IMG/VR virus record: IMGVR_UViG_2930556935_000001 | Span: 7,108 to 71,107 of that record | DNA length: 64,000 nucleotides | Source: a virus | Taxonomy: Duplodnaviria; Caudoviricetes | Strand: one strand, 5' to 3' | Shown: one piece after another, positions 3,946 through 64,000 of the stretch | Layout of the letters: every line of letters begins with the position of its first letter | Numbering within the stretch: position 1 is the stretch's first letter | Position numbers and translations under genes: made by a program | The notes under the pieces: generated by a model | What the model saw: only the letters and a program-made list of their open reading frames with translations | Database searches by the model: none | What the model was told of the DNA's origin: nothing

Positions 3946-3959
3946 CGGCCCGCCCCTCG

Positions 3960-13389: not shown

Positions 13390-13884
13390 TCACCCGCGAC
13401 TTGCCGCAGCGATCGTCTCGGCAGCGTCGTCCAATACCTGCTGAACGTCGCGTTCTATCTGCGGGCGGTGTTCGACCATCGTTTCGCGGAACCAGCTGCC
13501 GCCCGTAGTCTGGCGAACCCAGTTGTGCCGATTGCCGAACACGGGGTGACGCCAACCGGTCGAACTGTCCAGGTATCGCGGGAGATTGGCCTCATCCGGC
13601 TTGTCCATGAACGAGACGACTCGGAGTGCTGGAGCCTTCCCGACAGCCGCCTGAATCCTCACGCCTCGCGCCACACGGCGACGGAATCCCGAATGGCCGT
13701 GACCCTGCACGGGGAGGGCGCGCACGCGGTCCTTGGCCTCTTGCACGGCCGGCTTGACTGCCTTCTGGAGATCCTTGCGGAGCTTCTTCGGCAAGTCCCG
13801 GTCGACCTCGCGCAGAGCGATGGCCACCCGCTTGAACTCGTTCCCTAGAGAGACGTTGACCGAAGGCCCGCGGGCGCGCGCCAC
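13390..13884 (-). CDS. HK97 gp10-like neck/tail completion protein
   Basis: Basic protein with WRHPVFGNRHNWVRQ motif; position in tail cluster. Confidence 0.7.
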   Translation of the reverse strand: MARARGPSVNVSLGNEFKRVAIALREVDRDLPKKLRKDLQKAVKPAVQEAKDRVRALPVQGHGHSGFRRRVARGVRIQAAVGKAPALRVVSFMDKPDEANLPRYLDSSTGWRHPVFGNRHNWVRQTTGGSWFRETMVEHRPQIERDVQQVLDDAAETIAAASRG

Positions 13885-14300
13885 TAGACGGTCGCCCGCG
13901 CGATGCCCGTCCTCTGCGCCGGGAACGTCACCTGTGTCTCGGAGAGCGAGCCGACGTCACCGGAGAGGGGCTGGTATTCGAGCAGGATGCACGTCGCTGT
14001 GAACTTCGGGTTCGTCGCCGACACCGCCGAAGCGGTCGGCCGAACCTCCACGACGAACTCAGTCTCGTTGTTGTACAGGGGATACAGGGTCGCGTCGACC
14101 TGCGCCGCGGCGAAGTCCTGCTGAAAGTTGATGACGAAGTTGTCATCCTTCAGCCCCGCAACGCGCTCACGGCCGGAGCCGCTGAAGTTCGTTGTCTCGA
14201 CTTCGTCCTTCGACAGGTTCACTTCGACCGACGAAATGTGATCGGAGAAGTTCACCCCGTTGACGAGTATCGCGCAGTCGCGCAAAACGAGCTTGGCCAT
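13884..14300 (-). CDS. major tail (tube) protein
   Basis: 138 aa, ILVNGVNFSDHISSVEV...ETTNF...RERVAGLKD...NPKFTATC; position. Confidence 0.85.
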   Translation of the reverse strand: MAKLVLRDCAILVNGVNFSDHISSVEVNLSKDEVETTNFSGSGRERVAGLKDDNFVINFQQDFAAAQVDATLYPLYNNETEFVVEVRPTASAVSATNPKFTATCILLEYQPLSGDVGSLSETQVTFPAQRTGIARATV

Positions 14301-17023: not shown

Positions 17024-18319
17024 CTAGAGGCCGGTGACCGAACCGAACGCCTTCGGGCGGTAGTGGATCGCCGCGGCGCGCATGTCGGCGCGGATGGCGA
17101 GCTTGCCCTTCACGAAGTAGTCGCTGTGCGAGTTCGACACCTGGACGTCGATACCGCGGCGCATCGCGAGTTCCGAGAAGTTCGCGTAGTCCCCGAGAAT
17201 CGCCTTCGTCGAAGTGACCGCGGTCGTCTCGACAACCGGGATTCCCCAGATGGTGAACGGGCCGACCATCGACGGGTGTCCCCAGATGTACTGACCGTCC
17301 GCCGTCTTCAGCAGCCGGACGTTTTCCCACTTCGCCGGCGCGATGAAGAGAACCGACGGCTCCGCGAACCCGTTGTCACGGATCTTCCGGGCGCACTTGT
17401 ACACGGCGTCCGGGATCGAGTCCGTGCCCAGCGCCTGCGTCTGGATGCCGGAGACGTTCTCGGTGCCGCGCAGGTTCGGGGCGGTGCCGTTGCCGACCAG
17501 CAGCTGCGAGTCGAGACGCTGCTGAATCATGAACGGCAGGCGGTTGTTGACGTAGCCCTGCGCGCGCGGCTCGTCCTCGAACTGCTCGTCAGTGACGGGC
17601 AGGAACGTCGCGATCTTGCGCACCGGCTCCTGACGCTCGGTCAGCGCGAGCGCCGACTCTGCGTAGGAACCCTGGTTGTCCGCCTGGTTCGCCTCCGCCG
17701 TCTCCGCCGCGTTGTTCGTGAACGTGGTCTCTTCCATGTAGACCACGGCGGACATGCCCGTCGTGGTGTGCGGGAAGTACGCGGCGACGTGCACCGAAGG
17801 CCGCGTGGCCATCAGTTCGACACGGCCGGTCCGCAGGTCCTCCGAGTCCCAGCCCACCGGGGTTTCCATCAGCGTCTTCAGGCTGATGTCCAGGTGCGCG
17901 GAGGGGCCCACGCCCGAACCGGGCTTGTAGCCCTTGAAGGCGGTCGACTCGGCGAACTCGGCGCCCAGGTCGACGAACCCGCGCCCGCCCTTGCGCTCCG
18001 GCTCCCGGCCGCTCTTGGAGCCGCGGGTGCCGTCGCCGCCTTCCTTGCCCTCGTCGCCCTGCTGCGCCGCAGCCGCCGCGCGGGCGACGATGAGCAGCTC
18101 GTCGACCTTCGACTTGCAGCCGATGATCTCTTCGTTCATCTTGCGGATCTCGTCGACCTTGGCCGTGGTGTCGCCCGCGATCGACTTGACCTTGCTCATG
18201 TCGTAGTCGGGGCCGGCCTCCGTGAAGACCGCCGCGAGTCCCTTGCGCTTCTCGTCGAGCTTTTCCTGTGCCTGCTTCAGCGCAGGGAATTCGACGATCC
18301 GGTCAGAATCGTTGTACAT
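17024..18319 (-). CDS. major capsid protein (HK97 fold) with N-terminal delta domain
   Basis: VRKIATFLPVTDE, LLVGNGTAPNLRG, LKTADGQYIW, IWGIPVVET, YFVKGKLAIRA. Confidence 0.95.
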   Translation of the reverse strand: MYNDSDRIVEFPALKQAQEKLDEKRKGLAAVFTEAGPDYDMSKVKSIAGDTTAKVDEIRKMNEEIIGCKSKVDELLIVARAAAAAQQGDEGKEGGDGTRGSKSGREPERKGGRGFVDLGAEFAESTAFKGYKPGSGVGPSAHLDISLKTLMETPVGWDSEDLRTGRVELMATRPSVHVAAYFPHTTTGMSAVVYMEETTFTNNAAETAEANQADNQGSYAESALALTERQEPVRKIATFLPVTDEQFEDEPRAQGYVNNRLPFMIQQRLDSQLLVGNGTAPNLRGTENVSGIQTQALGTDSIPDAVYKCARKIRDNGFAEPSVLFIAPAKWENVRLLKTADGQYIWGHPSMVGPFTIWGIPVVETTAVTSTKAILGDYANFSELAMRRGIDVQVSNSHSDYFVKGKLAIRADMRAAAIHYRPKAFGSVTGL

Positions 18320-18382: not shown

Positions 18383-19525
18383 TTAGAAGTCGTTCATGAG
18401 CGCGAGCGACTGAACGAACAGCGAGGCCTTTTCATCGGCGCTCGGCTCGGACGGCTCGGCGTCATCAACGGGAATAGACAGCAGGGTTTCCAGCCGCTTC
18501 ACTTCATCCCTGATCCAAGACAGGAACTCGGCGGAGCCGGCCGACATGCCCTTGCCCTTCTGCGCACGGAGAGCCATGACTTCCGCAGCACGGTCATTCA
18601 GGCTCGACAGATTGGCCAGCACGTCAGTGGCCTCATCCGCGAACCGCTTCCTGCCCTTCTGGTCGCCGTCAGCTGTACGCAGCTGAGGCGGTTCCCGGTC
18701 GGCGTCCGTCAGGTGCGCCGCCAGGTGCTTGTAGACGGCCTCGCGGTCCTTCTCGGGTACGCCCGAGTCGCCGTTCGCGCCGTTCAGTTGAGCGATGCCC
18801 TGAAGGCACGCCCGGATGTTCGCCGGCCCGTCCACGCCGTGGTGATGGGCGAACAGGTACGACGACTTCAGCTCCGGGTCTCCCTCGGGGTCGACCCACG
18901 CGAAGACCGTCCGCAGCTGCGAAGGCCGCGCGTCCGCCGGAAGATCGCCGATCGTCTTGGTTCCGTCCCACGCGCCGGCGAGCGTCGCCGTCTCCCGGGC
19001 CGGGATCGGGCCGCGTACGGCACCGGAGGACTTCGCGGTAGGCCTGTCGTCCATCTGGCGCCCCTTCGTGGCGAGAGTGCGGGTACCGATACCGGCGCCC
19101 CTCAGGACGGGCGAGACCTCATGCACCGTCACCTCTTCGAGGTAGCGAACCGACTGATCCTTCTCTTCACCGAAGGAGTACTTATTGATGTCGAAGCCGT
19201 ACGACCACTCGCCCAAGCCGGCCGCTGCAAGCTCTTTGACGGTCTCGAAGGTGTCCTTGCCGTGAACCGTGTTCATGAAGAACTGGCCATCCAATACGGC
19301 CTTCTTGCCCTTCACGCGGATCACGCCCTTGCCTACGGGCAGCAATCCCTCCCACGACTTGTGGCCGTAGGCGCTGATGACGACGGCCGCCCCATCGGTG
19401 AACGCATCCTCGCGGGTGTAATCCCCGTCGTGATCCCGTACACCCATCGTCGAGAAGACAGCCGAGACAATTCCCTTTTCCGCGTCCTTGATTTCCAGAC
19501 CGCCGGACAGGCTCTTACGCTCCAT
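18383..19525 (-). CDS. HK97 prohead protease with extended C-terminus
   Basis: DHDGD, YGH, EWSYGF, HEVSPVLRGAG motifs. Confidence 0.9.
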   Translation of the reverse strand: MERKSLSGGLEIKDAEKGIVSAVFSTMGVRDHDGDYTREDAFTDGAAVVISAYGHKSWEGLLPVGKGVIRVKGKKAVLDGQFFMNTVHGKDTFETVKELAAAGLGEWSYGFDINKYSFGEEKDQSVRYLEEVTVHEVSPVLRGAGIGTRTLATKGRQMDDRPTAKSSGAVRGPIPARETATLAGAWDGTKTIGDLPADARPSQLRTVFAWVDPEGDPELKSSYLFAHHHGVDGPANIRACLQGIAQLNGANGDSGVPEKDREAVYKHLAAHLTDADREPPQLRTADGDQKGRKRFADEATDVLANLSSLNDRAAEVMALRAQKGKGMSAGSAEFLSWIRDEVKRLETLLSIPVDDAEPSEPSADEKASLFVQSLALMNDF

Positions 19526-20936
19526 TGTTTTCGCCTCCCGGCGCGCCGGTTGCTTCTAGTTGCGGTGGTGCGGGTGGCGCAGCAGTCAAAGCAGGCTGCG
19601 CAGGAAGAGGCGGCTGCATCTGCACGGACACGAGGCCCGTGTGATGACCGACCAGTAGTCCGATGTCCTCGGCCAAGAGCGCCTGTACGGCTGCATCCGG
19701 CTCGAATCCCGCCTTGATCAGGGCGTCAAGGGTGTTCGCCTGAACGCGCAGAATCTCGGCTCGGTCCTTCGAGTCCTCGCGAAGGAATGCAACGTCCCGC
19801 GTGTCGAACCAAAGAGACGCACCAGCAGGGACAGCGACCAGGTTCTGAAGGCTCGCGGCGGCGGTCCTCCACAGGTAGCGGATCGTCCCGTCGGCGAAAC
19901 GGCGGCGCGACGCTGCGAAGTTGTTCGTGTTGAGCGCGGAGCCTTGCAGTCCCTCGGAGAATCCGACCCATGACGGCGGAACTCCGGCCGCTGACGCTAT
20001 GCGCGCCTCGCCCTTGCCGACGGTCGCCGTGAAGTCCATCTGTCGGAAGTCGTGCGTCAGCGGTGTGACGTCGGCGCCGCCCTGAAGGAAGAGCGTCTTG
20101 TAGCTGTTCCACGCGCCTTCATGTCCGGCCTTGAACTGGCGCACGAAGGAGTCGAACTGCTCTTTCTGTACTTCCTTGTCGAAGCGCACCACCATGTTCG
20201 GCACGGCAGCGTGATCGAAGAAGGTTTTCTTGTGAAGGGTCGACGCGGTATCGGCCTCAATCTCCCGCAACACGGGAGTCAGCCACGACATGCCCCGGAA
20301 GCGGGCTGTCGGATCGGGGATCGGTGAATAGTGCGCGACCTCTTCCGGCAGCAACAGAACAGAACCGGCGAGGGGCGTGCCCGTCGCCATGATGCCGAAC
20401 ATCCGCGGCTCGTACAGAAAGCCAATGACCTTCGCATCCGCCGCGTAGTAGTCGCCACTGTGGGAGCCGATAATCATCGATACCCAGTCGGGACGTAGTC
20501 GGGCGAGACGCAGACCCGGACCGCTCGCAGAATTCCCGTAACGGCCCTGGTCGTCTACCTTCGTCCAGAAGCTGTTCCCGGCAAGCGAAGCGTCCTGCTC
20601 CATTCGTGAGAGCAGTTCACCGGTTGTCCCCGAAGGCCACGGGTTTTCCAGCAGCGCGAGTTCTCCCGTGCCGAAGAGATCCCCCGGGCGGCCCTTCGTG
20701 AACTGCCGGAACTGGAAGCGCGCTTCCGAGAAAACCATCTGGCGTGCAACCACGCAGCTGAAGATCGGGCCGTTCCGCTTGAAGGCTCCCTCTACGTAGC
20801 CTTCAAAGTCGGTCTCGATCCGCTCTTTGTCCGCCGTACTGCCCATCGCGAAGGGCGCAGCATCGAGACTCCAAAAGTCCGGCTGCGTAAAACCCTTCTG
20901 CCGCCCCCAGGGGATGAGCTTCTTCCACCACGCCAT
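19515..20936 (-). CDS. portal protein (HK97 family)
   Basis: LAGNSF, LRPDWV, RGMSWL, IASAAGVPPSWVG; between terminase and protease. Confidence 0.95.
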   Translation of the reverse strand: MAWWKKLIPWGRQKGFTQPDFWSLDAAPFAMGSTADKERIETDFEGYVEGAFKRNGPIFSCVVARQMVFSEARFQFRQFTKGRPGDLFGTGELALLENPWPSGTTGELLSRMEQDASLAGNSFWTKVDDQGRYGNSASGPGLRLARLRPDWVSMIIGSHSGDYYAADAKVIGFLYEPRMFGIMATGTPLAGSVLLLPEEVAHYSPIPDPTARFRGMSWLTPVLREIEADTASTLHKKTFFDHAAVPNMVVRFDKEVQKEQFDSFVRQFKAGHEGAWNSYKTLFLQGGADVTPLTHDFRQMDFTATVGKGEARIASAAGVPPSWVGFSEGLQGSALNTNNFAASRRRFADGTIRYLWRTAAASLQNLVAVPAGASLWFDTRDVAFLREDSKDRAEILRVQANTLDALIKAGFEPDAAVQALLAEDIGLLVGHHTGLVSVQMQPPLPAQPALTAAPPAPPQLEATGAPGGENNGA

Positions 20937-20938
20937 CG

Positions 20939-22513
20939 TTACCCCCATGCGCATCCGGCTTCGATGACTGGCTTATTGGCTTTCTGCTGAAGTCCCCACA
21001 TAGCCAACGTGGCAGCCTGAAGCGGTGTGATGTCGACAGCTGCCCCCGGCTGGTCCCACGCCCACAGGCCGGCGGCTACGCGCTTGTCGGCGCCTGCTAC
21101 GGCCGTCGTCAACGGAACCTGATCGAGGTGCACGAGAGTCGGATGGTTGCCCCGGATCGGAACGACCGCGCTCCCAAACGTCCCGCACGCCTGCGCGTAC
21201 TCGCGCACCGTGGGCGAGACGACTTCGAGCCCCTTGTTTTCGAGAGCCGCGATCAGTGCGCCGGCTTGGCTCGCCTTGTTGATGACGATCGCCTTCGGCT
21301 TCCACCGTTCGGCCAGCTCCGCCACGCGAGAGACGATCCATCGGTCACCGGGACGGTGATCGAGGACGTCGGACGACGTGATCTCTACATGCGTCAGACC
21401 GTCCGGGTTCAGCCCGGCGACGACGATGCAACCCATCTTGCGATCCGGCGACAGGTCGATGCCGAACGACAACTCGCCGACAGGTGACGACAGTTCGTCG
21501 ACGCAGGCCTTCCAGTACGACTCACCGATGACGCGCCACGTCTCGCCCTCGACAGGCCAGTCACCGACACCGAGCCGCTCCCGGCTGAACTCTTCCGCCG
21601 ACATCGAGCGGCGCTCCGCCTCGATGTGCTCGACAGAGCGTTCTGGGGACCTGGTCCCACCGATGCGGATCCCAAAGCCGGGGTTCGCCTTCGGGTAGCT
21701 CGCGTACAGGCGCGACAGTTGGCGGTCGTGCTCTGCCTGGTCCCACCGAGGATCGGCCTTGAAGTCCTGCGCGCCGTGGTCCTCGCAGTCCGGCGGGCAG
21801 AACTGGCCGCACGGATCTATGGACCATTCCAGGTAGCACAAGCGAGGGTCGTTGCCTTTGAGCCCGCGGGCCCGCACTCGTCCGAGCGCCGTTGACTCCT
21901 TGTTGCCGGACGATCCCGTGTACCAGACCTGCGGGTCTGGAACAGCGGAAAGGGTCGGCAGGATCGAGCCGACCGCCCGATCGGTGAGGATCATCGCTTC
22001 GTCCAAGACAAGGCGGTCACAGGTGAAGCCACGACCGCCGCCCGCCGTACGCGAGCGGAACCGCAGCCGGCGCAGCGCCCCGTCCCGGAACACCTCGATG
22101 CCCTCTTCGCCATGCGAGCGGGACACCCGCTTCACCATGCGATCCAGGTCCGGGGTGTTCTCGATCAGGCCCAAGATTCGTTTGAACGCTTCGAGGGACG
22201 TGTCGAAGAGGTGCGCGCTGTGAATGCACAGCTCTTCGTCGAAGAGGAACAGGGAGCCCAGCTCGACAGCTTCGAGGACGGCGCCCTTGCCGTTCTGACG
22301 CCCGACGATCAGGCCCACCTCGAAGGCGGACCATGTCCCGTCAGCGCGCTGCCCGAGCGCGTTCTCAAGCACCAGCCGCTGCCAGGGATCGAGAGGAAGC
22401 CCCGCTATCTCCGACAGTTCGGCAACATCTGCCCCCGCGCTCGACACGCGCGGAGGCGCACTGAGTATCCGGGGGGCCTGGTCGCCGCGCCCCGGTACGA
22501 CAACACCGCTCAT
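20939..22513 (-). CDS. terL: terminase large subunit
   Basis: LDPWQ, Walker A VGRQNGKG, Walker B LVLDEA, nuclease GIDLSPDR. Confidence 0.95.
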   Translation of the reverse strand: MSGVVVPGRGDQAPRILSAPPRVSSAGADVAELSEIAGLPLDPWQRLVLENALGQRADGTWSAFEVGLIVGRQNGKGAVLEAVELGSLFLFDEELCIHSAHLFDTSLEAFKRILGLIENTPDLDRMVKRVSRSHGEEGIEVFRDGALRRLRFRSRTAGGGRGFTCDRLVLDEAMILTDRAVGSILPTLSAVPDPQVWYTGSSGNKESTALGRVRARGLKGNDPRLCYLEWSIDPCGQFCPPDCEDHGAQDFKADPRWDQAEHDRQLSRLYASYPKANPGFGIRIGGTRSPERSVEHIEAERRSMSAEEFSRERLGVGDWPVEGETWRVIGESYWKACVDELSSPVGELSFGIDLSPDRKMGCIVVAGLNPDGLTHVEITSSDVLDHRPGDRWIVSRVAELAERWKPKAIVINKASQAGALIAALENKGLEVVSPTVREYAQACGTFGSAVVPIRGNHPTLVHLDQVPLTTAVAGADKRVAAGLWAWDQPGAAVDITPLQAATLAMWGLQQKANKPVIEAGCAWG

Positions 22514-31079: not shown

Positions 31080-31495
31080 GGCTCAAGGCTGCTGGCTTCA
31101 GCTCACCCCTCTAAAGGGGGTGAGCCTTGAGCCTCAGCTGGGGCTCAGTGGGGCTCAGAGGGTGAGCCGGAGTGAGCCTCAGAAGACATAACCCCTGGTC
31201 GTAGAGGCTCACGGTGGGGCTCAGCGTGAGCCGGAGTGAGCCTCAGTGATCGCTAAGGCCCCGAAAATCGCTGATCGTCTTGACCTGCGAAAAAGAGGCG
31301 TGAGCCCCAAGCCAAAATCCGCTGACCTGCGGAAACGAGATACGTGTATATACCTCCGGCTCACGAAGTTGATCGATGAGCCCCAACGTGAGCCCCATGG
31401 TGCATACACGGGGATCAGGGGGTGAGCCTCAGAAGATAAACGTGCTGGTCAGAAGGGGCTCAGTGGGGCTCATCGCTTGAGCCGGAGTGAGCCGG
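31080..31495. repeat. iteron array, probable replication origin
   Basis: 20 copies of TGAGCC/GGCTCA counted by eye in both orientations, often 10 bp apart, with an AT-richer spacer near 31340-31353; directly downstream of the helicase/Rep gene. Confidence 0.8.
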
Positions 31496-36685: not shown

Positions 36686-37600
36686 ATGAGCACAACGGAT
36701 CTGAGCAACGAAGAGCCCAGCGAAAATGCCAACGTGATCTTCATCGACGACGCGAGCGATTTCGGGCGGATCAGCTGGAAAACCCGAATTCTCGTGAACG
36801 GGGCCTTGACCCTCGCTGCCGCAGCGGCGGCTCTAGGTATCGCGAGCCTTAGCGACCCGGACAAAAACGCGACAGGAAATCCGTTCGATACCGTCTGGGT
36901 CCCGTGGGTGGCTTTTGCGCTGGGTGTGCTGCTGATCGGCGCGCTGATCTTTTTTCTGATCACGCGTCAGCGCTACATGGCCAATGAGAACAAAGGCTTC
37001 GCGGCGAAGCTGAAGGCGCAGGCGCAGTACCACGAACAAGCTCTGGAGAAGCTCCGCAAGACGACGGAACTAGCCACGCTGATGGAGCTGAATCAGGATC
37101 AGGTAGGGCGCTATCACCGCATCGTCACGGATCAGGCGGACAAGGCCTTCAAGTCCTCCCGCACCGCGATGGGGGTCGGACTGTTCCTTCTCGTCTGCGC
37201 AGCCGCGGGAGGGGCCTATGTGCCCGTCGAAGAGGTGCGCTGGTTCATCGGGGCCCTTGCGGCGTTCAGCACGCTACTGTCCGGCTACCTCAGCCAGACG
37301 TACACGGATCTCTATCGCAGGTCAATCAGTCAACTGAACCGCTACTTCGATCAGCCGGTGCTCAACAGCTACTTCCTAACCGCTGAGCGGCTGACCGCCG
37401 GGCTCGATGTTTCGCATGCTCAAGCTGTTCGCCAGCAGATCATCAACGAGGTTCTGGCGTCCAGCTCGCGCCTGACCGAGAAGCCTCCGGCGGAGGCGCC
37501 GGCCGTCGACGACGCGAAGCCGAAGAAGCGGAAGCCGAAGAAGCGCATCCCCAAGCAGGCGCAGGGCTCTGGGAGCGGTCAGTCACCGTCCGGGACTTGA
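36686..37600 (+). CDS. multi-TM moron protein, TRADD-N-associated / SLATT-like membrane domain
   Basis: Two N-terminal TMs, coiled coil, YH..V..QA..AF..S + two TMs + Y......QLN.YF; own -10-like TAGGCT and RBS; opposite strand to neighbours. Confidence 0.7.
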   Translation: MSTTDLSNEEPSENANVIFIDDASDFGRISWKTRILVNGALTLAAAAAALGIASLSDPDKNATGNPFDTVWVPWVAFALGVLLIGALIFFLITRQRYMANENKGFAAKLKAQAQYHEQALEKLRKTTELATLMELNQDQVGRYHRIVTDQADKAFKSSRTAMGVGLFLLVCAAAGGAYVPVEEVRWFIGALAAFSTLLSGYLSQTYTDLYRRSISQLNRYFDQPVLNSYFLTAERLTAGLDVSHAQAVRQQIINEVLASSSRLTEKPPAEAPAVDDAKPKKRKPKKRIPKQAQGSGSGQSPSGT

Positions 37601-37648: not shown

Positions 37649-37921
37649 TCAGGCATCGTTTTCCTCTCCTGTGTAGCGGGCGTACAGCCGCAGCTCGCCG
37701 TCGACGGTGCGGGACAGCGCGTCGAACGAGCCGGGCGGACGGTAGGCGAGGGGGTGCCCCGCCTTGATCCGGGATGCCGCCGTGGCGGCGGCGAACTTCG
37801 ACGGGAAGCCGGTACGGATCACCGCCCATTCGCCGGGCCGTTCCTTCAGCCCCGCGGCGACCGCCCGGTGATCGACCTTCGAGCGGGCGTCGTACCTGCC
37901 GGGCGGGTCTTCGAACTGCAT
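37649..37921 (-). CDS. small DNA-binding-like phage protein
   Basis: AAGLKERPGEWAVI...FDALSRTVDGELRLYARY. Confidence 0.6.
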   Translation of the reverse strand: MQFEDPPGRYDARSKVDHRAVAAGLKERPGEWAVIRTGFPSKFAAATAASRIKAGHPLAYRPPGSFDALSRTVDGELRLYARYTGEENDA

Positions 37922-38334
37922 CACGCTGTCTCCCCGAAGATCAGAGCCAGTTCGGCGTCCATGTCGATGCCGTCCATCTCGTGCGTGAACGGGACTGCCA
38001 GGTACGTGCGGATCAGGAACGCGTCGACCTGCTCGGCTTCTCCGTGCAGCTCTGCGCGGCCGTCGGGGCTGTCCAGCACGATGTGCAGGTCGTCGGGGCC
38101 GCACCGCCAGATGGTGACGTCTCCGCGCAGCTCCGGCGGGCTCTGGCGGGCGAGGCCTTCGGCGAGCAGGCTGCGGCCCATGGTCCATACGACTTCGGAT
38201 CCGTGGGAGTCGTCGCGGACGGTCAGTGTGACGGCGTACGGATCTTTCGGGTTGTAGGCCAACTCGCAGTTGTCGAGCGGCAGGGAGGCCCCGCCTGGAA
38301 GGACGATTTCGAGGTAGATCGGTAGGGTTATCAC
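37921..38334 (-). CDS. ssgA: SsgA-like sporulation/cell-division protein (SALP)
   Basis: L.Y...DPYAV.L...V.WT.GR.LL.EGL...GDV.IW...L.SPDG.A...FL.RTY..VP. Confidence 0.9.
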   Translation of the reverse strand: MITLPIYLEIVLPGGASLPLDNCELAYNPKDPYAVTLTVRDDSHGSEVVWTMGRSLLAEGLARQSPPELRGDVTIWRCGPDDLHIVLDSPDGRAELHGEAEQVDAFLIRTYLAVPFTHEMDGIDMDAELALIFGETA

Positions 38335-43688: not shown

Positions 43689-43810
43689 CAGCTGTAGTGC
43701 CCTGAGCGGTGGATTTCCATTTCGACGTACGTGTCGAACACGGCGCCGCAGCCGGGATAGACGCACCCCCAACTGCACAGCGCGGCAATCCTGTTCAGCC
43801 ATTTACGCAT
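43688..43810 (-). CDS. 40-aa C2H2 zinc-finger microprotein
   Basis: Not in ORF track; MRKWLNRIAALCSWGCVYPGCGAVFDTYVEMEIHRSGHYS, RBS AAAGGAAG, TGATG coupling. Confidence 0.65.
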   Translation of the reverse strand: MRKWLNRIAALCSWGCVYPGCGAVFDTYVEMEIHRSGHYS

Positions 43811-43897
43811 CGGTGCACTTCCTTTCATGCAGAAAGCCCCCGACCGGATGGCCAGGGGCTTGACGTTGCAGCGCGCAACGGGGGTGTTGAGGGGCGG

Positions 43898-44206
43898 TCA
43901 GTTGCGGGACTTGCGCCACACGTCGCGGAGGATGACGACGCAGATCGTCAGGGCCACCGCGGCGAGCGCGAGGCACACCGCAACGACCGCGAGGCCGATC
44001 ATGAAGGCGATGGCGACGGCACCGAGGACGGCGACCGCGAACACGGCGCCGCAGCCGCCCGCGACGTACATCCCCCACGGGCGCGCAACGATCGGCTGTT
44101 GCGGTGCAACGGCGGGCTGTTGCGGCCACGCGTAGATGGGCCGCCCGTCGCTGTCGATACCGACCTGCGGGAGGGGCGGTGCAACGGGGGGCGTGCGGCG
44201 TGGCAT
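43898..44206 (-). CDS. SpdD-like small membrane spread protein
   Basis: Pro/Gln-rich N-terminus, long hydrophobic C-terminus; in transfer cluster. Confidence 0.6.
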   Translation of the reverse strand: MPRRTPPVAPPLPQVGIDSDGRPIYAWPQQPAVAPQQPIVARPWGMYVAGGCGAVFAVAVLGAVAIAFMIGLAVVAVCLALAAVALTICVVILRDVWRKSRN

Positions 44207-44207
44207 C

Positions 44208-44531
44208 TCAGACCCGGTAGCCGGCGCTGCGCGCGGCCCGCTCGACACGGCGCACGTCTCGGTCGACCTCGCGCTGCTGGTCCCTCGCGGCGCGCTTCTC
44301 GGCTCCGCCCCGAGCGGTGCGCACCGCAGCCTTCGCGGCGGCGGCGTCGACCCGGGCGCGGTTCAGAACGCTGCGCATGGCGGCTTCGTCGGCTTGCCTG
44401 CGGTCGTCCTTGCGGTCCTTCATGCGGTCAAGCTCCGCGTCGATGCGCGGGTCGACTCCGGCGGACGCCTGCCTGCCGCCCTTCAGCAGCAGCATGGCGC
44501 GGCGGATGTTCTCTCCGGTTGTGTAGGGCAT
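44208..44531 (-). CDS. plasmid/AICE transfer-cluster protein
   Basis: TTGENIRRAMLL...VDPRIDAELDR...; basic helical protein downstream of traB. Confidence 0.55.
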   Translation of the reverse strand: MPYTTGENIRRAMLLLKGGRQASAGVDPRIDAELDRMKDRKDDRRQADEAAMRSVLNRARVDAAAAKAAVRTARGGAEKRAARDQQREVDRDVRRVERAARSAGYRV

Positions 44532-44545
44532 GCGGGGTTTCTCCT

Positions 44546-44797
44546 TCAGCGGGTGCCTTCACGGTGCACTGCGCGGGCGTGGTTGTGGATGCGGCGACCG
44601 ATGCGGAGCCGCTTGCCGGTCGTCTTGCAGCGGCGGCACGGTCTGCCGCGCTTGAGCCGTCCATCGCGGCCGGACTTCATTCGGTGTCCCCAGCCGTCGC
44701 ACCGGCGGCAGCGCCCGAAAGGGCTGACCCAGCAGAGCAGTGGATATCCGGTGAGCAGCGCGAGAACGAGCGCCGTAGTGAGCAGCGCAGAAACCAT
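44546..44797 (-). CDS. membrane-anchored Zn-finger protein typical downstream of AICE traB
   Basis: TM helix then PFGRCRRCDG.G...CRRCKTTGKRLRIGRR. Confidence 0.7.
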   Translation of the reverse strand: MVSALLTTALVLALLTGYPLLCWVSPFGRCRRCDGWGHRMKSGRDGRLKRGRPCRRCKTTGKRLRIGRRIHNHARAVHREGTR

Positions 44798-44841
44798 GAC
44801 TTCCGCCTCCCGGGCGGATTCGGGGGTGTCGCGGGGTGGTG

Positions 44842-44919
44842 GTGCTACGTGCTGCACCGCAGGCCAAGACCGCAGAAGGTGCTAGCGGAGGTGCTACACG
44901 TAGCAGTGGCCCGTGCTAC
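44842..44919. repeat. GTGCTA(C/G)-type short repeats, candidate cis-acting transfer locus
   Basis: GTGCTAC at 44842, 44891, 44913; GTGCTGC 44849; GTGCTAG 44879; inverted variant at 44900. Confidence 0.55.
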
Positions 44920-47012
44920 CCGCTCTGATCGAGAGAGGCACGTTCGATGCCCCGTCGCGTGGTGCGCTTGCCGTCGTCGGTGTAGCCCGCGATGTCCTTC
45001 GTTTCGATGCCGTGCGGCTTCAGGTTCGCGGTGACGGTCTCGCCCTTCCACCCGTCGTAAATGTCGGGGCGCAGCGCGGCGAGGCGTGAAGCGATGCGCT
45101 CGTTCCAGATGCTCTTCTCGTCAGCCGCGACAACGCGGCGGACGTCCGCCACGAGGTCGAATGTCGGCTCGCCGGACTCGGGCATCTGCCCGACGGCGTG
45201 CCCGGTGACGTTGCCGTATTCCTCGCGCACCTTCCGGGCCCGCGCGGTGACCAGGTCCGCCGCGGGGCCGTCGACGAACGCCGACGCCGCGATCACGGGG
45301 TCGTCGCCTTCGCCAGCCATGAAGCAGATGCCACGGTCGGAGCGGCTGAACATCGTCGCCCGGATCCCTGCCTTGTACGCGCCGGTGCCAAGCACCATGT
45401 CGTTCGCAGTGTGGCCCATCACTTTGAGGCAGAAGCGCAGGATCGCGTTCGCGCTGATGCCGGGCGGGAGGCTCTTCGCGTCGGGCCGCTGCGTCGCGAA
45501 CATGCCGACGATGCCGAGGGCCGGTCCGCGCTTGCCGAGGTCGATGCAGATCGATTCGATTTCCGCGCCGTGCTTTTCGTGCTCGAACGCGATCTGGCAT
45601 TCGTCCAGTCCGACGACGATGGGGTGCAACCCGTACCGCTTGTCGCTCGCGAGCTGCGGCGTCACCTTGTTCTCGGGACAGATCGAGCGGGGCAACGCCT
45701 TGATCACCTTCGCGCGGCGCCGCAGCTCTTCCTTCAGCTCCCGCAACGCGTGCAGGACGTACAGGATGTCTTCGTCCTCTTCGCCCGACCGGTAGCGGTG
45801 GCATACCGGTTCCAGCGGACCGAGGTCGCCGGTGCCCTTGAAGTCGAACGCGTAGATCATCGAGCGCGGATCGAGTGCGAAGATCAGCAGAAGCAGCCTG
45901 AGCAGGAACGTCTTGCCCATGCGGGGAACCGACCCGATGACGATCGACGCGAACATCAGGGTGACGTGGACGTCCCGCATCCGCTGGTCGTTGCCGAACA
46001 CGACGGGCTTGAAGAGATCCACCATGCCGGACTTCAGTAGCGGCCACGGCGGCTTCGTCGTCTCGTTCATCGGGCGGTCGCCCACCCACAGGATGAGGCG
46101 CCCCTCGTGCTCCTCGGGGTCCGCCGCAGGCCACACGCAGCCCAGCTTGCGGCGGAGGCCGGAGGCCAGTGAGCTGCGCTCTTCCATGATGTCTTCCGGC
46201 GTGACGCCGTACGGCAAGTCGATGTCGGCGCGGTAGCCGGGGCCATCGCGGCAGATCTCGGACGTGAACTTCATCCCGTCCATGTCGCCGCCCTTCTTGA
46301 TGGCGGCACTGATCTTCGCGTTGCCGATGGCTCCGAGCGCCCTCATCACGATCGAGAACGTCAGCTTCTGCACTTCGGTCTTCAGCACGGCCGGCCCGAT
46401 GACGGGGGCGTCCAGGCGCTGACCTGCGTAACCGAGCCCCATCACACCGACCGCGGCGAACACGTACAGCCATGCGGGCGCCATCACGCACAGCGTGAGC
46501 GCGACCCCGAGACCGAACACCGCCGCAATCACGGTGGCGAAGCCCCGCAGCCGCACCCGTCCGGCCCGCAGCCGGGCCAGGGCCATGTACTCGCTCGCGT
46601 CTTCCTGCCGCACCGCGTAGTCCCGCAGCGGGGCCGCCTCCACGTCCCACAGCCACGCGTTCGCGGCCACCGCGAGGCGGACAGCCCCGGCGGGTGCGCG
46701 AGCGGCGAGGCGGGCCGGGTAGACGCCGCCGACGGTCCGGACGCCGTGGTACAGCGAGGCGTACGCGACGTGAGCGCCGACGTGCCGGGCGGTGGCGAGG
46801 AAGTCGCGCCGGTTGGTCAGCCATCCCGCGACGATCGGACGCCGCTTCTCGGTGACGATGCCGGGCGCGGGCAGGTTCGGGTTGTCGACGGGCACGGGCG
46901 CCGCGTCCGGTTCCAGGCTGTACGTCTCGGTGTCGGGGTCGGCGTCGTCGACCTTCGTCAGCGTCACGGGCCGGCTGTCGAGCGTGCCGCGTGTGCCGTC
47001 GGCGATGCTCAC
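44916..47012 (-). CDS. traB: TraB-like FtsK/SpoIIIE conjugative DNA translocase
   Basis: N-terminal TM pair, Walker A GSVPRMGKT, DFKGTGDL, Walker B IVVGLDECQ, ATQRPD, C-terminal wHTH-like domain. Confidence 0.9.
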   Translation of the reverse strand: MSIADGTRGTLDSRPVTLTKVDDADPDTETYSLEPDAAPVPVDNPNLPAPGIVTEKRRPIVAGWLTNRRDFLATARHVGAHVAYASLYHGVRTVGGVYPARLAARAPAGAVRLAVAANAWLWDVEAAPLRDYAVRQEDASEYMALARLRAGRVRLRGFATVIAAVFGLGVALTLCVMAPAWLYVFAAVGVMGLGYAGQRLDAPVIGPAVLKTEVQKLTFSIVMRALGAIGNAKISAAIKKGGDMDGMKFTSEICRDGPGYRADIDLPYGVTPEDIMEERSSLASGLRRKLGCVWPAADPEEHEGRLILWVGDRPMNETTKPPWPLLKSGMVDLFKPVVFGNDQRMRDVHVTLMFASIVIGSVPRMGKTFLLRLLLLIFALDPRSMIYAFDFKGTGDLGPLEPVCHRYRSGEEDEDILYVLHALRELKEELRRRAKVIKALPRSICPENKVTPQLASDKRYGLHPIVVGLDECQIAFEHEKHGAEIESICIDLGKRGPALGIVGMFATQRPDAKSLPPGISANAILRFCLKVMGHTANDMVLGTGAYKAGIRATMFSRSDRGICFMAGEGDDPVIAASAFVDGPAADLVTARARKVREEYGNVTGHAVGQMPESGEPTFDLVADVRRVVAADEKSIWNERIASRLAALRPDIYDGWKGETVTANLKPHGIETKDIAGYTDDGKRTTRRGIERASLDQSG

Positions 47013-47884
47013 GGCTGGAACGCCGCAACATCAGCAGCGTCGAAGACGTGTGACCCGCCATCGGCGCCCGCCGCAACGGGGGTGAGCCGGCCGCGATGCA
47101 CCCACGACCGGACGGTCTCCGGCTTCACCTTCTTCAGCGCCGCGACTTGAGCGGTCGTCAGCGTCTCGCCACGGTGGGCGGCGGGTGCCGTGGCGCGGCG
47201 CGCGATCGGCAGCAGAACGGCGCCCGCCGGAACGACGTCCGCCATCGGCGAGCTGCGCCGTGCAACGGGAGGCGCGACAACCACCGGCGGGGCCGTGGCG
47301 GCGGACACCAGGGGCAGCAGTACAGCGCCCGCCGGAGCGGTCACCGGCCACAGGACCGCAGCGCCCCCGCCACGCACTGCAACGCGGGGTGTTGCAGTGC
47401 CACGCCATGCCGTTGCAACGCGTCCCCAGGTGAGTGCGGCGAGGTGCGTGCCGAGTCCGATACAGACGACCGGCGCCGCCGACGCGAGGATGACGTGCCC
47501 CCATGTCGGCACATCGCTGGACGCAGTAATTCCAGCGGCTGCCGATCCGTGCGCGACATTCAGCGTGAGCGAAATTGCGGTAAGGCCGATAACCGTTCCG
47601 ATTGCCCACCGATATCCGGCACCGCCGTAAAGGACGATCGATGCGACGGCGGCGAGCCCGGCGAGCAGGTCGACGGCGAGCGGATAGAACTGCCGGACTT
47701 CGTGAAGGCCGATGGTGTCGGCGGTATCGCGGAGCGGCACCCACGAGACGCGCATACCGACGACGGCAACGAGCGCGAGAGCGGTGAGGATCAGGGCGAA
47801 CCCGGCGACGCTCATCGTCAGGTTCACGCTGTCGCGACTCTTGATCACCGCAGGGGGTGGCGGACTAGTCTTCTTCCGGGCCAT
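47009..47884 (-). CDS. DUF2637/Spd-like multi-TM protein with C-terminal HTH
   Basis: SW..LRD.A...YPLAVD...SLTLNVAH, four TMs; LTTAQVAALKKVKPETVRSWVHRGRL HTH; coupled to traB. Confidence 0.8.
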   Translation of the reverse strand: MARKKTSPPPPAVIKSRDSVNLTMSVAGFALILTALALVAVVGMRVSWVPLRDTADTIGLHEVRQFYPLAVDLLAGLAAVASIVLYGGAGYRWAIGTVIGLTAISLTLNVAHGSAAAGITASSDVPTWGHVILASAAPVVCIGLGTHLAALTWGRVATAWRGTATPRVAVRGGGAAVLWPVTAPAGAVLLPLVSAATAPPVVVAPPVARRSSPMADVVPAGAVLLPIARRATAPAAHRGETLTTAQVAALKKVKPETVRSWVHRGRLTPVAAGADGGSHVFDAADVAAFQP

Positions 47885-48061
47885 GGAGGTCAGTTCTCCT
47901 GGTCAAGGGTCCCGGTGTCGGTGGCAGCCTTCGCCGGGGCCCGCTGGTTGAGCCCCGCGAGCGCAGGGCCACTTATCGCTATACGCCGCAACGGCCGTGC
48001 GCCGCAATGGCGTTCGAGGATTCGCCACCGCGCGACACCCCCACAGGGGCGGGTGAGGCGG

Positions 48062-48933: not shown

Positions 48934-49172
48934 GACCCGCCTCGTTCCGGCCCAAGACCGTGGACGGCGCGGTGCGCGTTGACCAAGCCCTCGCACACGG
49001 CGCAGTTCTGGTACGAGCCGAGCGGCGCCCGCTTCCCTATGCAGATGTGGCCGCAGAGCGCTATGTCCCCCCGCCTCACGCGGCCGGTGAAGCAGATCGG
49101 ACAGACGACGTGCGCGATGGGCGGCGCGCTGAACGACGCGGTAGCCTCCCTCGATTCAGCGACGGTTGTCAC
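48930..49172 (-). CDS. small Zn-finger protein, paralogue of 48455-48691
   Basis: IAHVVCPICF...ALCGH...CAVC; RBS GGAGGG. Confidence 0.6.
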   Translation of the reverse strand: MTTVAESREATASFSAPPIAHVVCPICFTGRVRRGDIALCGHICIGKRAPLGSYQNCAVCEGLVNAHRAVHGLGPERGGS

Positions 49173-50095
49173 AGTCCCTCCTTCCGTTGCTGGTTCCTGT
49201 AGCCGGAGCGCACCGACGATTCCGCCTGCCGGTATCCGCCTTTGCCGTGCGCGGTGACGTACGCCGCGCCCAACTGGTCGATGGCCGTGTCGATGTCGAT
49301 GCCGTCCGAACACGCTGCGCGGGCAGCCCAGAAGAGAGCGTTCGACAGGTTGCCGTCCGGCGCCGTCAGCACCGTGTCGACCAGGCCGGAGATGCCGCCC
49401 GTCTTCCGCGGCTGCGCGAACAGCGGCTTCGGCGGCGGAGCCGGCTCGCGGCACAGTTCGACCAGCCACCGCGGCGCGTCCCGGACCGGCGTCGCGTTCT
49501 CCGCGATGTAGGAACCCTTCGAGGTGATCGAGCCTGCCCCGAGGACGTAGCCGCCACGCTCCCCGCCGTTGCACCGGATGTCGAGCACGCCCTTCACGAG
49601 CGACGCCTGAGACGCCTTCACACCCTCCGGCCACCGGTAGTACAGGTGCAGCCCCATCGACCCGGTGCACACGCGGTACGTGTCGTTCAGCTCTGCCCAG
49701 TCGCCGCCGTGCAGCTCGCACACCGCCTTGAGCACGTCGTGCCCGTCGACCATCGGCCCGAGTGACTCGTGAAGCTGCGCGAACTGCGTGCCCTTCAACT
49801 GACCGGGCAGCTTGGCTATGTCGCAGTCGATGACGAGCAGCCCCGACGGCTTGCACGCAACGCCGATGTTCGCGGCCGGCGACCACGACCAGACCTCGAT
49901 GACCCGGTCAAGGTCGTTCGTCGCCTCTTCGCCCCACCGGATCTTGTACGGCTTGACCGGGGTCAGCAAGTGCGGTTGCTTGTCGATGACGTCACCGGAC
50001 TGCGGGCACCGGGTCCCCGCCTCGTTGCACGGGAAGATATGGAAGCCCTGCTGTACGGCGGTCACCGCGTAGCTGATCAGGTTCATACGGAACAC
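49169..50095 (-). CDS. bifunctional DNA primase/polymerase (Prim-Pol)
   Basis: GFHIFPC, ATND, ANIGVAC, LLVIDCD, TGSMGLHLYY, LDIR..GGYVL, N.LFWAA. Confidence 0.92.
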   Translation of the reverse strand: MFRMNLISYAVTAVQQGFHIFPCNEAGTRCPQSGDVIDKQPHLLTPVKPYKIRWGEEATNDLDRVIEVWSWSPAANIGVACKPSGLLVIDCDIAKLPGQLKGTQFAQLHESLGPMVDGHDVLKAVCELHGGDWAELNDTYRVCTGSMGLHLYYRWPEGVKASQASLVKGVLDIRCNGGERGGYVLGAGSITSKGSYIAENATPVRDAPRWLVELCREPAPPPKPLFAQPRKTGGISGLVDTVLTAPDGNLSNALFWAARAACSDGIDIDTAIDQLGAAYVTAHGKGGYRQAESSVRSGYRNQQRKEGL

Positions 50096-50162
50096 TCCTC
50101 ATCAACGCGAACTCCGGGACAGAGGTGAACGGATGAGGTATCTCTGTCGAGTGACTAGCCTT

Positions 50163-52094
50163 ATGCCGTCCACGCAGGCGCCGGACTGGCCGCACTGCGG
50201 TGAGAACGCACATCCCGTCAACGATCCAGTCGGTTGTCGAGGCATCCGGCTCCCTCGGCTGACCACGTGTATGGCGCACGCCGCGCCTGCCGATCGAATT
50301 CAATACCTCGCAGAGCTGGGGCAGGGCTCAAACGTCGACCACCGCGGAACCGAATTCACTCAGGAGTTGCTGAACGATCTATGCAGTGCAGTTAAACATC
50401 CGCTTGGCGGACCACCTAGATTTGGGGTAGGCGACTTCCGAGAAGCAACCTTCTCCGAGTACGCAACTTTCGGAAGCGCAAGTTTCCAGGGTGGAGCACT
50501 CTTCTCAGAGGCAATCTTCTCGGATGAGTGTCAGTTTTGGGATTCGACGTTTAAGGAAATCGCAGATTTCAGCGGAACCACATTTACAGGGTTCGCGCGA
50601 TTCGGCGATGTCCATTTTGCACCCTCGACCACATTCGCCGGAGCCAAGTTCGAATCCGGCACGCACTTCAACGGCGCAAATTTTCCCTCGGACGTCAGTT
50701 TCCGAGATGCCCAGTTCTGCGGCGCCACTAATTTCCAAGAAGTCACTTACGGCGGGAAGTCGGACTACAGTAAAGCCCATTTTTCCAGCGCGGCAAATTT
50801 CATGGATGCCGATTTCAACAAGTCAAGCTGGTTCGACCAATGCATATTTAACGGTTCGGCACACTTTGACGCAGCACATTTTCGCGGCGACGCGCGCTTC
50901 GTGCGCACTTCATTTAAAGGGGGTGTCACCTTCACCGGCACCGACCTGTCTTCAGCCGGACTATTTGTCGGCGCAGAGTTTGACGAGAAGGTCGCCATCG
51001 GACCACTCACCTGCACAGGGCGGCTCAGCTTCGACAATGCGGTATTCAGGCAGTGGGTTACCATCCACGCTTCAGCCAGCCATGTCTCCTGCTGTCGCTC
51101 CCGGTTCGAGGAACCTGTAACTTTTGCCTTGAGAGAAGCCTCCGTAGACCTTACGGACGTCCTCCTGCTTCACTCCTGCACGGTCAAGATCGGACACAAT
51201 GCCGACGGCAACCGTCATCGCGTTTCCATAGCGGCAGGAATGTCTCCCCGTGACCCGACTCCCGCGATAGTGTCTCTCAGCGGCGCAGACGCAGCCTTGA
51301 TCCTATTGTCAGATGTCGATCTTACAGCCTGCTCGTTTGAAGGCACACATCATTTGGACCAACTGCGTCTCGAAGGGAGCTGGCAACTACACACAACTCC
51401 TCAAGGATGGCGCAGAGGTTATTTCATCCCTATGAGATGGGCTAAACGGCAAATCATTGAGGAGGAAAGGAAGTGGCGAGCACTTAGGTACCTCCCCAGA
51501 TATCACCGTCTTGACTGGGGCCTCCCGCCGGACAGACCCGAGTACGTGCCAAGCCTTCCCGCACTGGCCGCTATTTACCGCCAGCTCCGTAAGGCACGCG
51601 AGGACGCGAAGGACGAACCGGGCGCCGCGGACTTCTACTACGGCGAGATGGAGATGCGCCGCTTCAGCAAGGGATGGAAGTCGGCAGAGCGCTGGCTACT
51701 TCAGCTGTACTGGCTGCTGTCCGGGTACGGGCTGCGTGCCTCGCGCGCGCTGGGCTGGCTCGCCCTCGCGATGATGACGACGATCCTGCTGATGATGGGC
51801 TTCGGCCTGCCTCAGGATTCCCCCAAGCAGGAGGCGACTGGCGTCGTGCCGCCCGGCGGCGGCAAGGTCACCTTCGAGATCGACAAGGAAGACCCACGCA
51901 ACCCAACCGGGGACCACTTCACGGGCGAGCGGTTCGACAAGGCGCTGAGCGTCACCCTCAACTCGGTCGTCTTCCGGTCCAGCGGTGAGGACTTGACGAC
52001 GGCCGGCGGGTACATCGAGATGGCATCACGCTTCTCCGAACCTGTCCTTCTCGGTCTCGCAGCCCTCGCGATCCGGGGGCGGGTCAAGCGGTGA
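50163..52094 (+). CDS. pentapeptide-repeat protein with C-terminal membrane domain (moron)
   Basis: A.F..A.F repeats; YRQLRKA.ED.KDEPGAADFYYGEMEMRR; YWLLSGYGLRASRA plus TM/pore-like segment; start uncertain (50133 or 50163). Confidence 0.9.
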   Translation: MPSTQAPDWPHCGENAHPVNDPVGCRGIRLPRLTTCMAHAAPADRIQYLAELGQGSNVDHRGTEFTQELLNDLCSAVKHPLGGPPRFGVGDFREATFSEYATFGSASFQGGALFSEAIFSDECQFWDSTFKEIADFSGTTFTGFARFGDVHFAPSTTFAGAKFESGTHFNGANFPSDVSFRDAQFCGATNFQEVTYGGKSDYSKAHFSSAANFMDADFNKSSWFDQCIFNGSAHFDAAHFRGDARFVRTSFKGGVTFTGTDLSSAGLFVGAEFDEKVAIGPLTCTGRLSFDNAVFRQWVTIHASASHVSCCRSRFEEPVTFALREASVDLTDVLLLHSCTVKIGHNADGNRHRVSIAAGMSPRDPTPAIVSLSGADAALILLSDVDLTACSFEGTHHLDQLRLEGSWQLHTTPQGWRRGYFIPMRWAKRQIIEEERKWRALRYLPRYHRLDWGLPPDRPEYVPSLPALAAIYRQLRKAREDAKDEPGAADFYYGEMEMRRFSKGWKSAERWLLQLYWLLSGYGLRASRALGWLALAMMTTILLMMGFGLPQDSPKQEATGVVPPGGGKVTFEIDKEDPRNPTGDHFTGERFDKALSVTLNSVVFRSSGEDLTTAGGYIEMASRFSEPVLLGLAALAIRGRVKR

Positions 52095-60004: not shown

Positions 60005-60100
60005 TATTCAGTTGTGCCGCCGCAGGGACCGCAATGCGGCGGGTCGTACGCAACTCCCCAGTGCCCCGGGGTCGGTCCGGGCACGGACCGGCGGTGTCGG

Positions 60101-60173
60101 CTCTCTCGCCTGGACTTGAACCAGGAACACACGGATTAACAATCCGCTGCTCTGCCGATTGAGCAACGAGAGA
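60101..60173 (-). tRNA. tRNA-Asn (GTT), CCA not encoded
   Basis: Acceptor TCTCTCG/CGAGAGA, D arm GCTC/GAGC, anticodon arm GCGGA-TTGTTAA-TCCGT, T arm CCTGG-TTCAAGT-CCAGG, discriminator G. Confidence 0.95.
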
Positions 60174-63631: not shown

Positions 63632-64000
63632 CTACGGGTGGTGCCTCGTGATCGGCTCGGAGCTGGGGACCCACCGCATCGCGTCGCCGCTCACGTACGC
63701 GTTCAGCTCCCGGTCGATACGGGCGAGAGTGCGGCGCGGAGACGAGCGGCGCGGCGCCGGAACGGCAGCCGGGTTGGTACGCGGGTAGCGGTCCCACGCA
63801 GTGGCCATGACGTGCACCTCGCTCGGGCGGTACGCCATGACGCGGCGGAAGCGGCCGTTGATGAGACGGAACGCCTTGCGGGGCTCGCGGCGGTATGCGG
63901 CGCGATAGATCTCAGCGGCGAGACGGCCGAAGGGAGAGGCGTACCGCCAGTCGGCAGGGAGGCCCCGCCGACTGAGGTACTCCGCGACGGTGAGCTTCAT
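63632..64000 (-). CDS. possible DNA-binding protein resembling the C-terminal domain of actinophage antirepressors
   Basis: LTVAEYL...ASPFGRLAAEIY...REP...INGRFRRVMAY; may extend beyond the window edge. Confidence 0.5.
   Translation of the reverse strand: MKLTVAEYLSRRGLPADWRYASPFGRLAAEIYRAAYRREPRKAFRLINGRFRRVMAYRPSEVHVMATAWDRYPRTNPAAVPAPRRSSPRRTLARIDRELNAYVSGDAMRWVPSSEPITRHHP

Follow-up and report, generated by a model that had tools for sequence, protein, structure and literature searches.

Does a temperate Streptomyces phage carry, in addition to its virion genes, a module for passing double-stranded DNA (dsDNA) through hyphal walls? The question is raised by a gene cluster in the stretch of DNA analysed here (the window), which comprises 64,000 nt, i.e. 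bases 7108-71107 of the single 71,107-bp virus record IMGVR_UViG_2930556935_000001; coordinates are those of the window unless marked as contig positions. A first-pass annotation, made from the letters of the sequence, had described the cluster as a Streptomyces-type conjugation module sitting in an apparently intact siphophage. On balance, our analysis leads us to regard the cluster as probably a TraB/clt-type dsDNA transfer module belonging to a temperate Streptomyces siphophage, and the confidence that we attach to this reading is modest.

The cluster (43834-47884) consists of five co-oriented minus-strand genes, all with intact open reading frames (ORFs), and a closing hairpin. All five genes of the first-pass annotation were recovered where it had placed them. 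Among them are its membrane zinc-finger gene, for which a transmembrane (TM) helix and CxxC pairs were found, and its basic helical gene, with 27 Lys + Arg in 107 aa and a probable helical structure; its hairpin near 43830-43860 corresponds to the hairpin with a 12-bp stem listed last below.

47009-47884, minus strand: membrane protein with four TM segments and a C-terminal helix-turn-helix domain (HTH_17, excisionase/MerR-like), the 4-TM/HTH protein (291 aa; hydropathy, Pfam)
44916-47012, minus strand: TraB-type FtsK-like dsDNA translocase (698 aa; N-terminal helical/TM part, motor, C-terminal winged helix)
44798-44919, minus strand: clt-like repeat array separating traB from the zinc-ribbon gene (sequence; conserved pattern)
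44546-44797, minus strand: small membrane-anchored zinc-ribbon protein (83 aa, 21 Lys + Arg; ribosome-binding site and ATG, TM helix, CxxC pairs)
44208-44531, minus strand: basic, probably helical protein (107 aa, no TM segment; G+C at third codon positions 0.88)
43898-44248, minus strand: Pro-rich small membrane protein, candidate spread-type accessory (hydrophobic stretch at residues 58-112)
43834-43861, minus strand: GC-rich hairpin closing the operon

The TraB-type translocase and the repeat array behind its gene

Judged by sequence comparison, the ATPase is a TraB-type translocase that groups with the TraB proteins of plasmids and of the integrative and conjugative elements of actinomycetes (AICEs) and not with chromosomal FtsK. 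BLASTP aligned it with TraB of plasmid pSVH1 (27% identity over 375 aa, E 1e-29), and tblastn retrieved 34 plasmid records, nearly all from Streptomyces, with pSVH1 and pSG5 among the weaker matches and an 18.4-kb AICE-like plasmid as the best one (53.6% identity). The strong match to Pfam FtsK_SpoIIIE (PF01580) that marks chromosomal FtsK/SpoIIIE proteins was not found: the score was 16.9 bits, below the 24-bit cut-off, and in a complete Streptomyces genome chromosomal FtsK reached 225 bits and the TraB clade 28. The comparison with chromosomal FtsK that had been proposed at first therefore comes out on the side of TraB. Among phage families the protein matched phrog_1358 ("FtsK/SpoIIIE-like", 1.7e-23), and its own family numbers 2363 clusters at 50% identity when E values up to 1e-3 are admitted and 604 with E values up to 1e-30.

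A hydrophobic hairpin at residues 153-194 (long helices at 139-196 in the structure model) is the predicted membrane anchor. The motor, FtsK-like and of the hexameric type, carries the Walker motifs SVPRMGKT (A) and IVVGLDE (B), of which, in a 69-sequence alignment, G366, K367 and E471 are invariant and D470 is kept in at least 90% of the rows. Searched as a profile against the PDB, the protein hit FtsK (E 7e-15), TcpA and EccC. Its AlphaFold (AF2) model, with a predicted local distance difference test score (pLDDT) of 88.3, retrieved FtsK motors first in Foldseek (E about 1e-13, TM-score about 0.68), followed by the conjugation coupling protein TcpA, EccC and HerA. Walker motifs, FtsK fold and hairpin thus bear out the initial description of an FtsK-family ATPase with N-terminal TM segments. 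At the C-terminus, residues from about 620 to 697 follow the order helix-strand-helix-helix-hairpin (H-b-H-H-b-b) and, modelled alone, reach a pLDDT of 85.6.

Directly behind the traB stop lies an array of four (C/G)TAGCAC copies on the coding strand, including the palindrome GCTACGTGTAGC, within the 118-nt spacer 44798-44915 and its edges. It came to light only when the 8-mers surrounding traB were clustered across 38 loci; programs that look for repeats or tandem repeats in general had not reported it as a family. The word GTGCTAS occurs in the window at chance level (7 sites vs 7.5 expected), so that only its clustering is informative: four of the seven sites fall within 78 bp on one strand. 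When the pentamers CTAGC, GCTAG, GTAGC and GCTAC were counted in the 130 nt after the traB stop, the array held six, whereas the background has a mean of 0.23 per 135 nt. The same count came to at least five in 37 of 40 related loci (background about 0.2 per stretch of that size); the three exceptions are L001 (ATAGC), L036 (CTAGA) and plasmid pPaSha2, whose array lies 270-345 nt downstream. Plasmid pSVH1, whose repeat word we take to be GACCCGGA, shows four forward copies and a reversed one within 110 bp after its traB stop and two elsewhere on the plasmid. In pSVH1, pSG5 and many loci of the clade, the repeats are followed by a CTGACCTGCG-like box.

The repeat variant tracks the residue pair in the first wing strand of the TraB winged helix in all 40 rows (40/40):

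CTAGC: wing Val-Trp, 35 loci
GTAGC: wing Ile-Ala, 3 loci (the window, its sister and the distant pPaSha2, i.e. two distant lineages)
CTAGA: wing Val-Trp, 1 locus
ATAGC: wing Val-gap, 1 locus

This covariation fits a direct read-out of the repeat by the wing, and the array as a putative docking site of TraB is well supported by its position, its conservation and this pattern.

Similar words were also seen away from traB. Loci L017 (17968-18234) and L036 (14802-15076) hold large extra CCGCTAC arrays with a GCAGGTCA box, several kb from traB, which might be the clt of a second element or origin iterons. In the window, four GCTAC words and a GCAGGTCA box form a second, smaller group at 37273-37368, inside a plus-strand ORF (36686-37600) that matched no family.

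Among the accessory genes, the 4-TM/HTH gene is translationally coupled upstream of traB, its stop overlapping the traB start. Its product has four hydrophobic segments and matched HTH_17 (1.4e-6, 28.9 bits vs a cut-off of 27) and phrog_16651 (9.4e-6). It had been called DUF2637-like at first; the four TM segments and the HTH domain are present, and the proposed homology to DUF2637 (PF10935) fell away: there was no match at E values up to 0.1 in the 291-aa protein and none in its 62 homologues (0/62), and an hhalign comparison with the TM proteins that other loci have upstream gave a probability of 1.4%. An identity with SpdB2 was also rejected (BLASTP against SpdB2 of pSVH1, E 13), the likeness being one of four-TM topology only.

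The zinc-ribbon gene has a first-start ORF at 44546-44857, its likely true start being the ATG at 44797 behind GGAGG. The protein combines an N-terminal TM helix with a CxxC...CxxC pattern, and by tblastn a homologue follows traB directly in 30 of 37 loci. The basic protein (44208-44531) matched no family and, by tblastn, nothing in any related locus. The Pro-rich protein (43898-44248), described as having two TM segments, has its sole copy elsewhere in L011 (77% identical) and matched no family above cut-off; the label SpdD-like is not supported. NCBIfam returned only weak HTH matches for the five module proteins. The region around the closing hairpin (43800-43900, 101 nt, coding strand) folds with -37.5 kcal/mol (z -2.17); the hairpin was not flagged by a consensus terminator scan because it lacks a T-run.

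The cluster within the phage genome and its relatives

The window has a G+C content of about 66%, and its minus strand holds nearly all genes. A full siphophage gene set was identified in it with PHROGs, its virion module reaching from 2 to about 26400; the last entry below is a replication gene outside that module:

2-634: endolysin
7922-12175: tape measure protein
13884-14300: major tail protein
Tail terminator and head-tail adaptor (PHROGs)
17024-18319: major head protein
Protease (PHROGs)
19515-20954: portal protein
20939-22513, minus strand: large terminase (TerL), marker of the virion module (phrog_9, 6.5e-66)
49169-50095, minus strand: Prim-Pol replication protein, upstream of the transfer module (Pfam Prim-Pol, 2.9e-28)

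Together with a CheckV completeness of 100% for the record, which IMG/VR classes as a provirus, this structural set upholds the description as an apparently intact siphophage. Early genes encode, besides Prim-Pol, an AAA_25 helicase, an exonuclease, an endonuclease VII and a C5 methylase; AICE-like loci, too, have Prim-Pol proteins of the same type close to traB. No phage in the collection searched has a capsid protein more than 42% identical to the one encoded here, and blastn and tblastn of the cluster and of TraB against the 50,697 phage records of this collection gave no match, close kin possibly lying outside the collection.

That the cluster belongs to the phage is supported by a 69-kb provirus, G002, which shares the early region gene for gene (54-93% identity), the module included. 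The early genes flanking the module are 60-93% identical in G002, in line with the earlier placement of the cluster between phage early genes. The ratios of nonsynonymous to synonymous substitution (dN/dS) between the record and G002 are 0.23 for traB, 0.27 for the 4-TM/HTH gene (copy in L011) and 0.33 for the zinc-ribbon gene. By these comparisons the module is under purifying selection and a conserved part of the phage backbone. A separate insert with its own att ends, which the first-pass annotation had named as the finding that would speak against it, is not what was found: gene order is shared with G002, no direct repeats flank the cluster, and six-frame searches detected no tyrosine or serine recombinase in the 71-kb record or in G002.

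The same unit of traB, clt-like array and zinc-ribbon gene lies beside phage genes in at least nine other prophages. It stands 2-5 kb before the TerL-portal-protease-capsid genes in L009, L010, L012, L020 and L033, and in L005, L006, L007 and plasmid pPaSha2 it likewise has phage genes on its flanks. The array sits at the traB stop in 10 of the 11 phage-context loci, the eleventh being pPaSha2. Among IMG/VR loci with the TraB clade, seven of eight have phage hallmark genes in the flanks examined. Among species-representative genomes, two of 29 loci (L020, L033) have TerL, protease and capsid genes directly after traB and the zinc-ribbon gene, with the portal also in L033. In the remaining 27, AICE-type genes or nearby host genes were seen and phage hallmarks were absent within 10 kb, a class that was assigned for 14 of them by Pfam on ORFs of at least 230 aa outside traB (less three long ORFs) and for 13 from tblastn alone.

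On a 42-row tree the labels phage and non-phage require eight changes, at least six of which are forced by well-supported branches, and they cluster no more than shuffled labels do. The unit has therefore moved repeatedly between AICE-like elements and prophages. Several records filed as plasmids, namely CP052773.1 (L002, L003), NZ_CP053567.1 and the contig of L033, hold terminase or capsid genes together with a TraB-like gene and are likely to be unrecognised actinomycete phage-plasmids.

Whether the element is circular or integrated had been left to be checked at first. It is a provirus inside a larger molecule and not a free circle. No terminal direct or inverted repeats were found at the ends of the record. 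A contig of the DNA run that is its probable source extends 11,258 nt past position 64000, and an identical TraB is recorded on a 769,691-bp contig; the record was thus cut from a larger molecule. The parAB genes or the integrase for which a check outside the window had been proposed did not turn up anywhere in the 71-kb record. A TraB that is 79% identical (P0004) and a 4-TM/HTH protein that is 59% identical (P0284) are each found on a 71,318-bp NCBI contig, which is near the length of the record and hints, if weakly, at a related element that was assembled by itself.

Some further features of the phage genome deserve mention. An SsgA-like protein is encoded at 37921-38334 on the minus strand (Pfam SsgA, 9.8e-21; the L011 copy is 58% identical); the SsgA family controls sporulation septation in Streptomyces. 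The lone plus-strand gene at 50133-52094, which may be a moron, lies in an island of low G+C (0.586 vs about 0.68); its product, of 653 aa, is a pentapeptide-repeat protein whose C-terminus is hydrophobic (Pfam Pentapeptide_3, 3.1e-22). Direct repeats of 45-77 nt, spaced about 280 bp apart (31134-31493), precede the AAA_25 helicase gene as a candidate replication origin. A tRNA-Asn(GTT) gene on the minus strand of the early region (60099-60173) shares sequence with the end of a doubtful ORF on the plus strand. Both proviruses have at their left end a pair of genes for DUF6879 and XRE-DUF5753 proteins (contig 393-2592, L004), members of which also occur near traB in the AICE-like loci L008, L025, L026, L034, L037 and L040, with both present in L008, L034 and L040.

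What the pump may do, and competing explanations

In the plasmid system, clt is bound by TraB, which pumps dsDNA in unprocessed form, and spread is supported by Spd proteins (PMC4447253). By analogy, the circular, replicating phage DNA present after induction or infection would carry the repeat array, on which TraB would dock through wing and recognition helix. It would then pump the dsDNA, still unprocessed, across cross-walls or fused hyphal contacts, with the small membrane proteins helping to form the passage. The phage genome could in this way move between compartments or mycelia, spreading within a mycelium and perhaps to neighbouring ones without a capsid, beside the release of virions. 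Hypha-to-hypha transfer and a bypass of receptor resistance, as proposed at first, would follow from such a mechanism.

Several observations weigh against a transfer module of this kind. The covariation of repeat and wing comprises few independent lineages. GCTAC arrays with a GCAGGTCA box near replication genes in L017 and L036 mean that the repeats could serve another DNA-binding protein, and the palindromic 12-mers of the array do not resemble the repeats of clt, which are described as purely direct. Foldseek with the C-terminal domain listed many winged-helix domains, all of them weak matches (best E 0.03); FtsK gamma was absent from the matches listed. ParB- or ParA-type genes are lacking in six frames of both proviruses (no ParB_N or AAA_31 match), as are integrase and resolvase. 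The sequencing runs listed as containing the element comprise a single DNA run (Logan contigs), probably the source sample, and no RNA run. Finally, there is no GntR-type kil-kor regulator (TraR/KorA) beside the module: the sole GntR/UTRA and NUDIX genes lie at contig 2668-4050 (GntR/UTRA at 2668-3405), about 50 kb away and outside the window. They form part of a 3.2-kb block (contig 2573-5800, L004) that also holds a 356-aa protein of no recognised kind and a small TM gene and is absent from G002. The GntR protein is 53% identical to that of the AICE-like plasmid NZ_CP107792.1, and the GntR/UTRA-NUDIX pair resembles the KorSA/Pif pair of pSAM2 (PMC2440964).

The lack of an adjacent kil-kor pair also bears on a different function, which we regard as unlikely. 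The pump could serve the phage replicon inside one mycelium, for segregation into spore compartments or exclusion of incoming related elements, the array acting as a site of orientation or loading like FtsK-orienting polar sequences (KOPS). TraB resembles the segregation pumps FtsK and SpoIIIE (PMC4447253), the phage encodes the SsgA-like septation protein, and the record, unlike G002, has a NUDIX gene of the Pif-like exclusion type (PMC2440964). Yet among characterised proteins its closest kin serve conjugation, many small AICE-like islands with integrase and replication gene have no transfer gene other than this unit, and an integrated provirus needs no segregation pump.

It is more doubtful still, to the point of being improbable, that the cluster is a separate small AICE that landed in or lies beside the prophage and is carried by the phage as a passenger. 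Most chromosomal TraB relatives do stand in AICE-like contexts, the tree demands its eight label changes (at least six of them forced), and DUF6879, XRE-DUF5753, GntR and NUDIX genes are gathered at the left end of the record. Such a landing is difficult to reconcile with 71 kb, and a relative, free of integrase and resolvase genes, with a cluster that no direct repeats enclose, with flanks of conserved early phage genes (60-93% identity in G002), and with a unit that abuts packaging genes in at least five other prophages. Very little credence is due to the idea that the module is inactive and left over from earlier recombination with AICEs: a virion life cycle needs no transfer genes and no regulator stands beside the module, but all ORFs are intact, the catalytic residues are invariant, dN/dS is 0.23 to 0.33, and of the 11 phage-context loci 10 have retained even the non-coding array at the traB stop.

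A broader form of the reading as a phage-borne transfer module can be put forward as a possibility that we would sooner doubt than assert. A sizeable class of temperate Streptomyces phages might be phage-AICE hybrids with TraB, clt and the zinc-ribbon partner as their backbone. This unit would have been swapped repeatedly with integrative conjugative elements, and the dsDNA genome would be passed through hyphal walls free of a capsid. The TraB wing would read the first base of (C/G/A)TAGC (Trp for C, Ala for G) and so make transfer element-specific. If the pump acts on phage DNA, such phages would have a second route of spread that requires neither receptor nor lysis. This would change the view of host range, resistance and the spread of lysogens in mycelial bacteria, and conjugative elements and phages of actinomycetes would draw on one pool of modules. 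Together, the clt word and the wing residues that covary with it amount to a recognition code open to direct test, and the module might be of use for mobilising large DNA in Streptomyces.

Comparison with known systems

Literature searches, with the sources represented in part, turned up no published description of a TraB-clt module in integrated Streptomyces prophages. The transfer systems of pSVH1 and pSG5 share with the module a membrane-anchored FtsK-like motor, an array right after the traB stop, a CTGACCTGCG-type box and small membrane proteins in the operon. Differences concern the repeat word, which here is (C/G)TAGC(AC), partly palindromic, and not GACCCGGA as in pSVH1, as well as the lack of a detectable SpdB2 homologue and of an adjacent GntR regulator. 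The replicon differs too, a 71-kb tailed provirus here and a 12-kb plasmid in the pSVH1/pSG5 type. SpdB2 homologues have been noted in the actinophages phiC31 and VWB, together with the idea that spread proteins aid phage DNA in the mycelium (Thoma et al. 2015, PMC4447253). These two phages are cited for SpdB2 only, whereas the present phage has a motor and a cis site and no detectable SpdB2 homologue.

A precedent invoked at first, the Streptomyces plasmid-phage pZL12 (phage ZL12), holds: a working tra locus is reported for it (PMC3583192, PMC7157519). Its record (GQ919031.1) lists ParA/ParB, an integrase, an FtsK-like tra gene, neighbouring membrane genes and a GntR regulator. Both are tailed-phage genomes with an FtsK-like tra gene and membrane genes. 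pZL12, however, is a circular plasmid-prophage of 90 kb that has ParA/ParB and an integrase, and the provirus analysed here has neither in its record; parAB and an autonomous circle, the marks of a pZL12-type phage-plasmid, were thus not found. The Tra protein of pZL12 is not similar to the TraB studied here (BLASTP, E 1.0). We are therefore dealing with an independent union of a phage with TraB, in the form of an integrated provirus with an AICE-type unit.

AICE-like elements (the 18.4-kb NZ_CP107792.1 and islands L013-L041) have TraB proteins of 53-75% identity, a clt-type array and a zinc-ribbon gene, and further Prim-Pol genes and a GntR/NUDIX pair. In contrast to the provirus, they have an integrase and lack virion genes, and the membrane protein upstream is a DUF2637 protein accompanied by an RRQRL zinc protein, not a 4-TM/HTH protein. 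Of the combination of integrase, replication and Tra functions in a small element that defines an AICE, the record has Tra and Prim-Pol; a recombinase is lacking and virion genes are present. Plasmid pPaSha2 (CP052773.1) differs in its genus (Pseudonocardia alni), in being a free circular replicon of 41.9 kb, and in that its array follows traB only beyond a small gene. It carries terminase, portal, protease, capsid and holin genes, a DUF2637 gene and a TraB-like gene (43% identity), and its GCTAC-type array comes with an Ile-Ala wing motif, as in the provirus analysed here.

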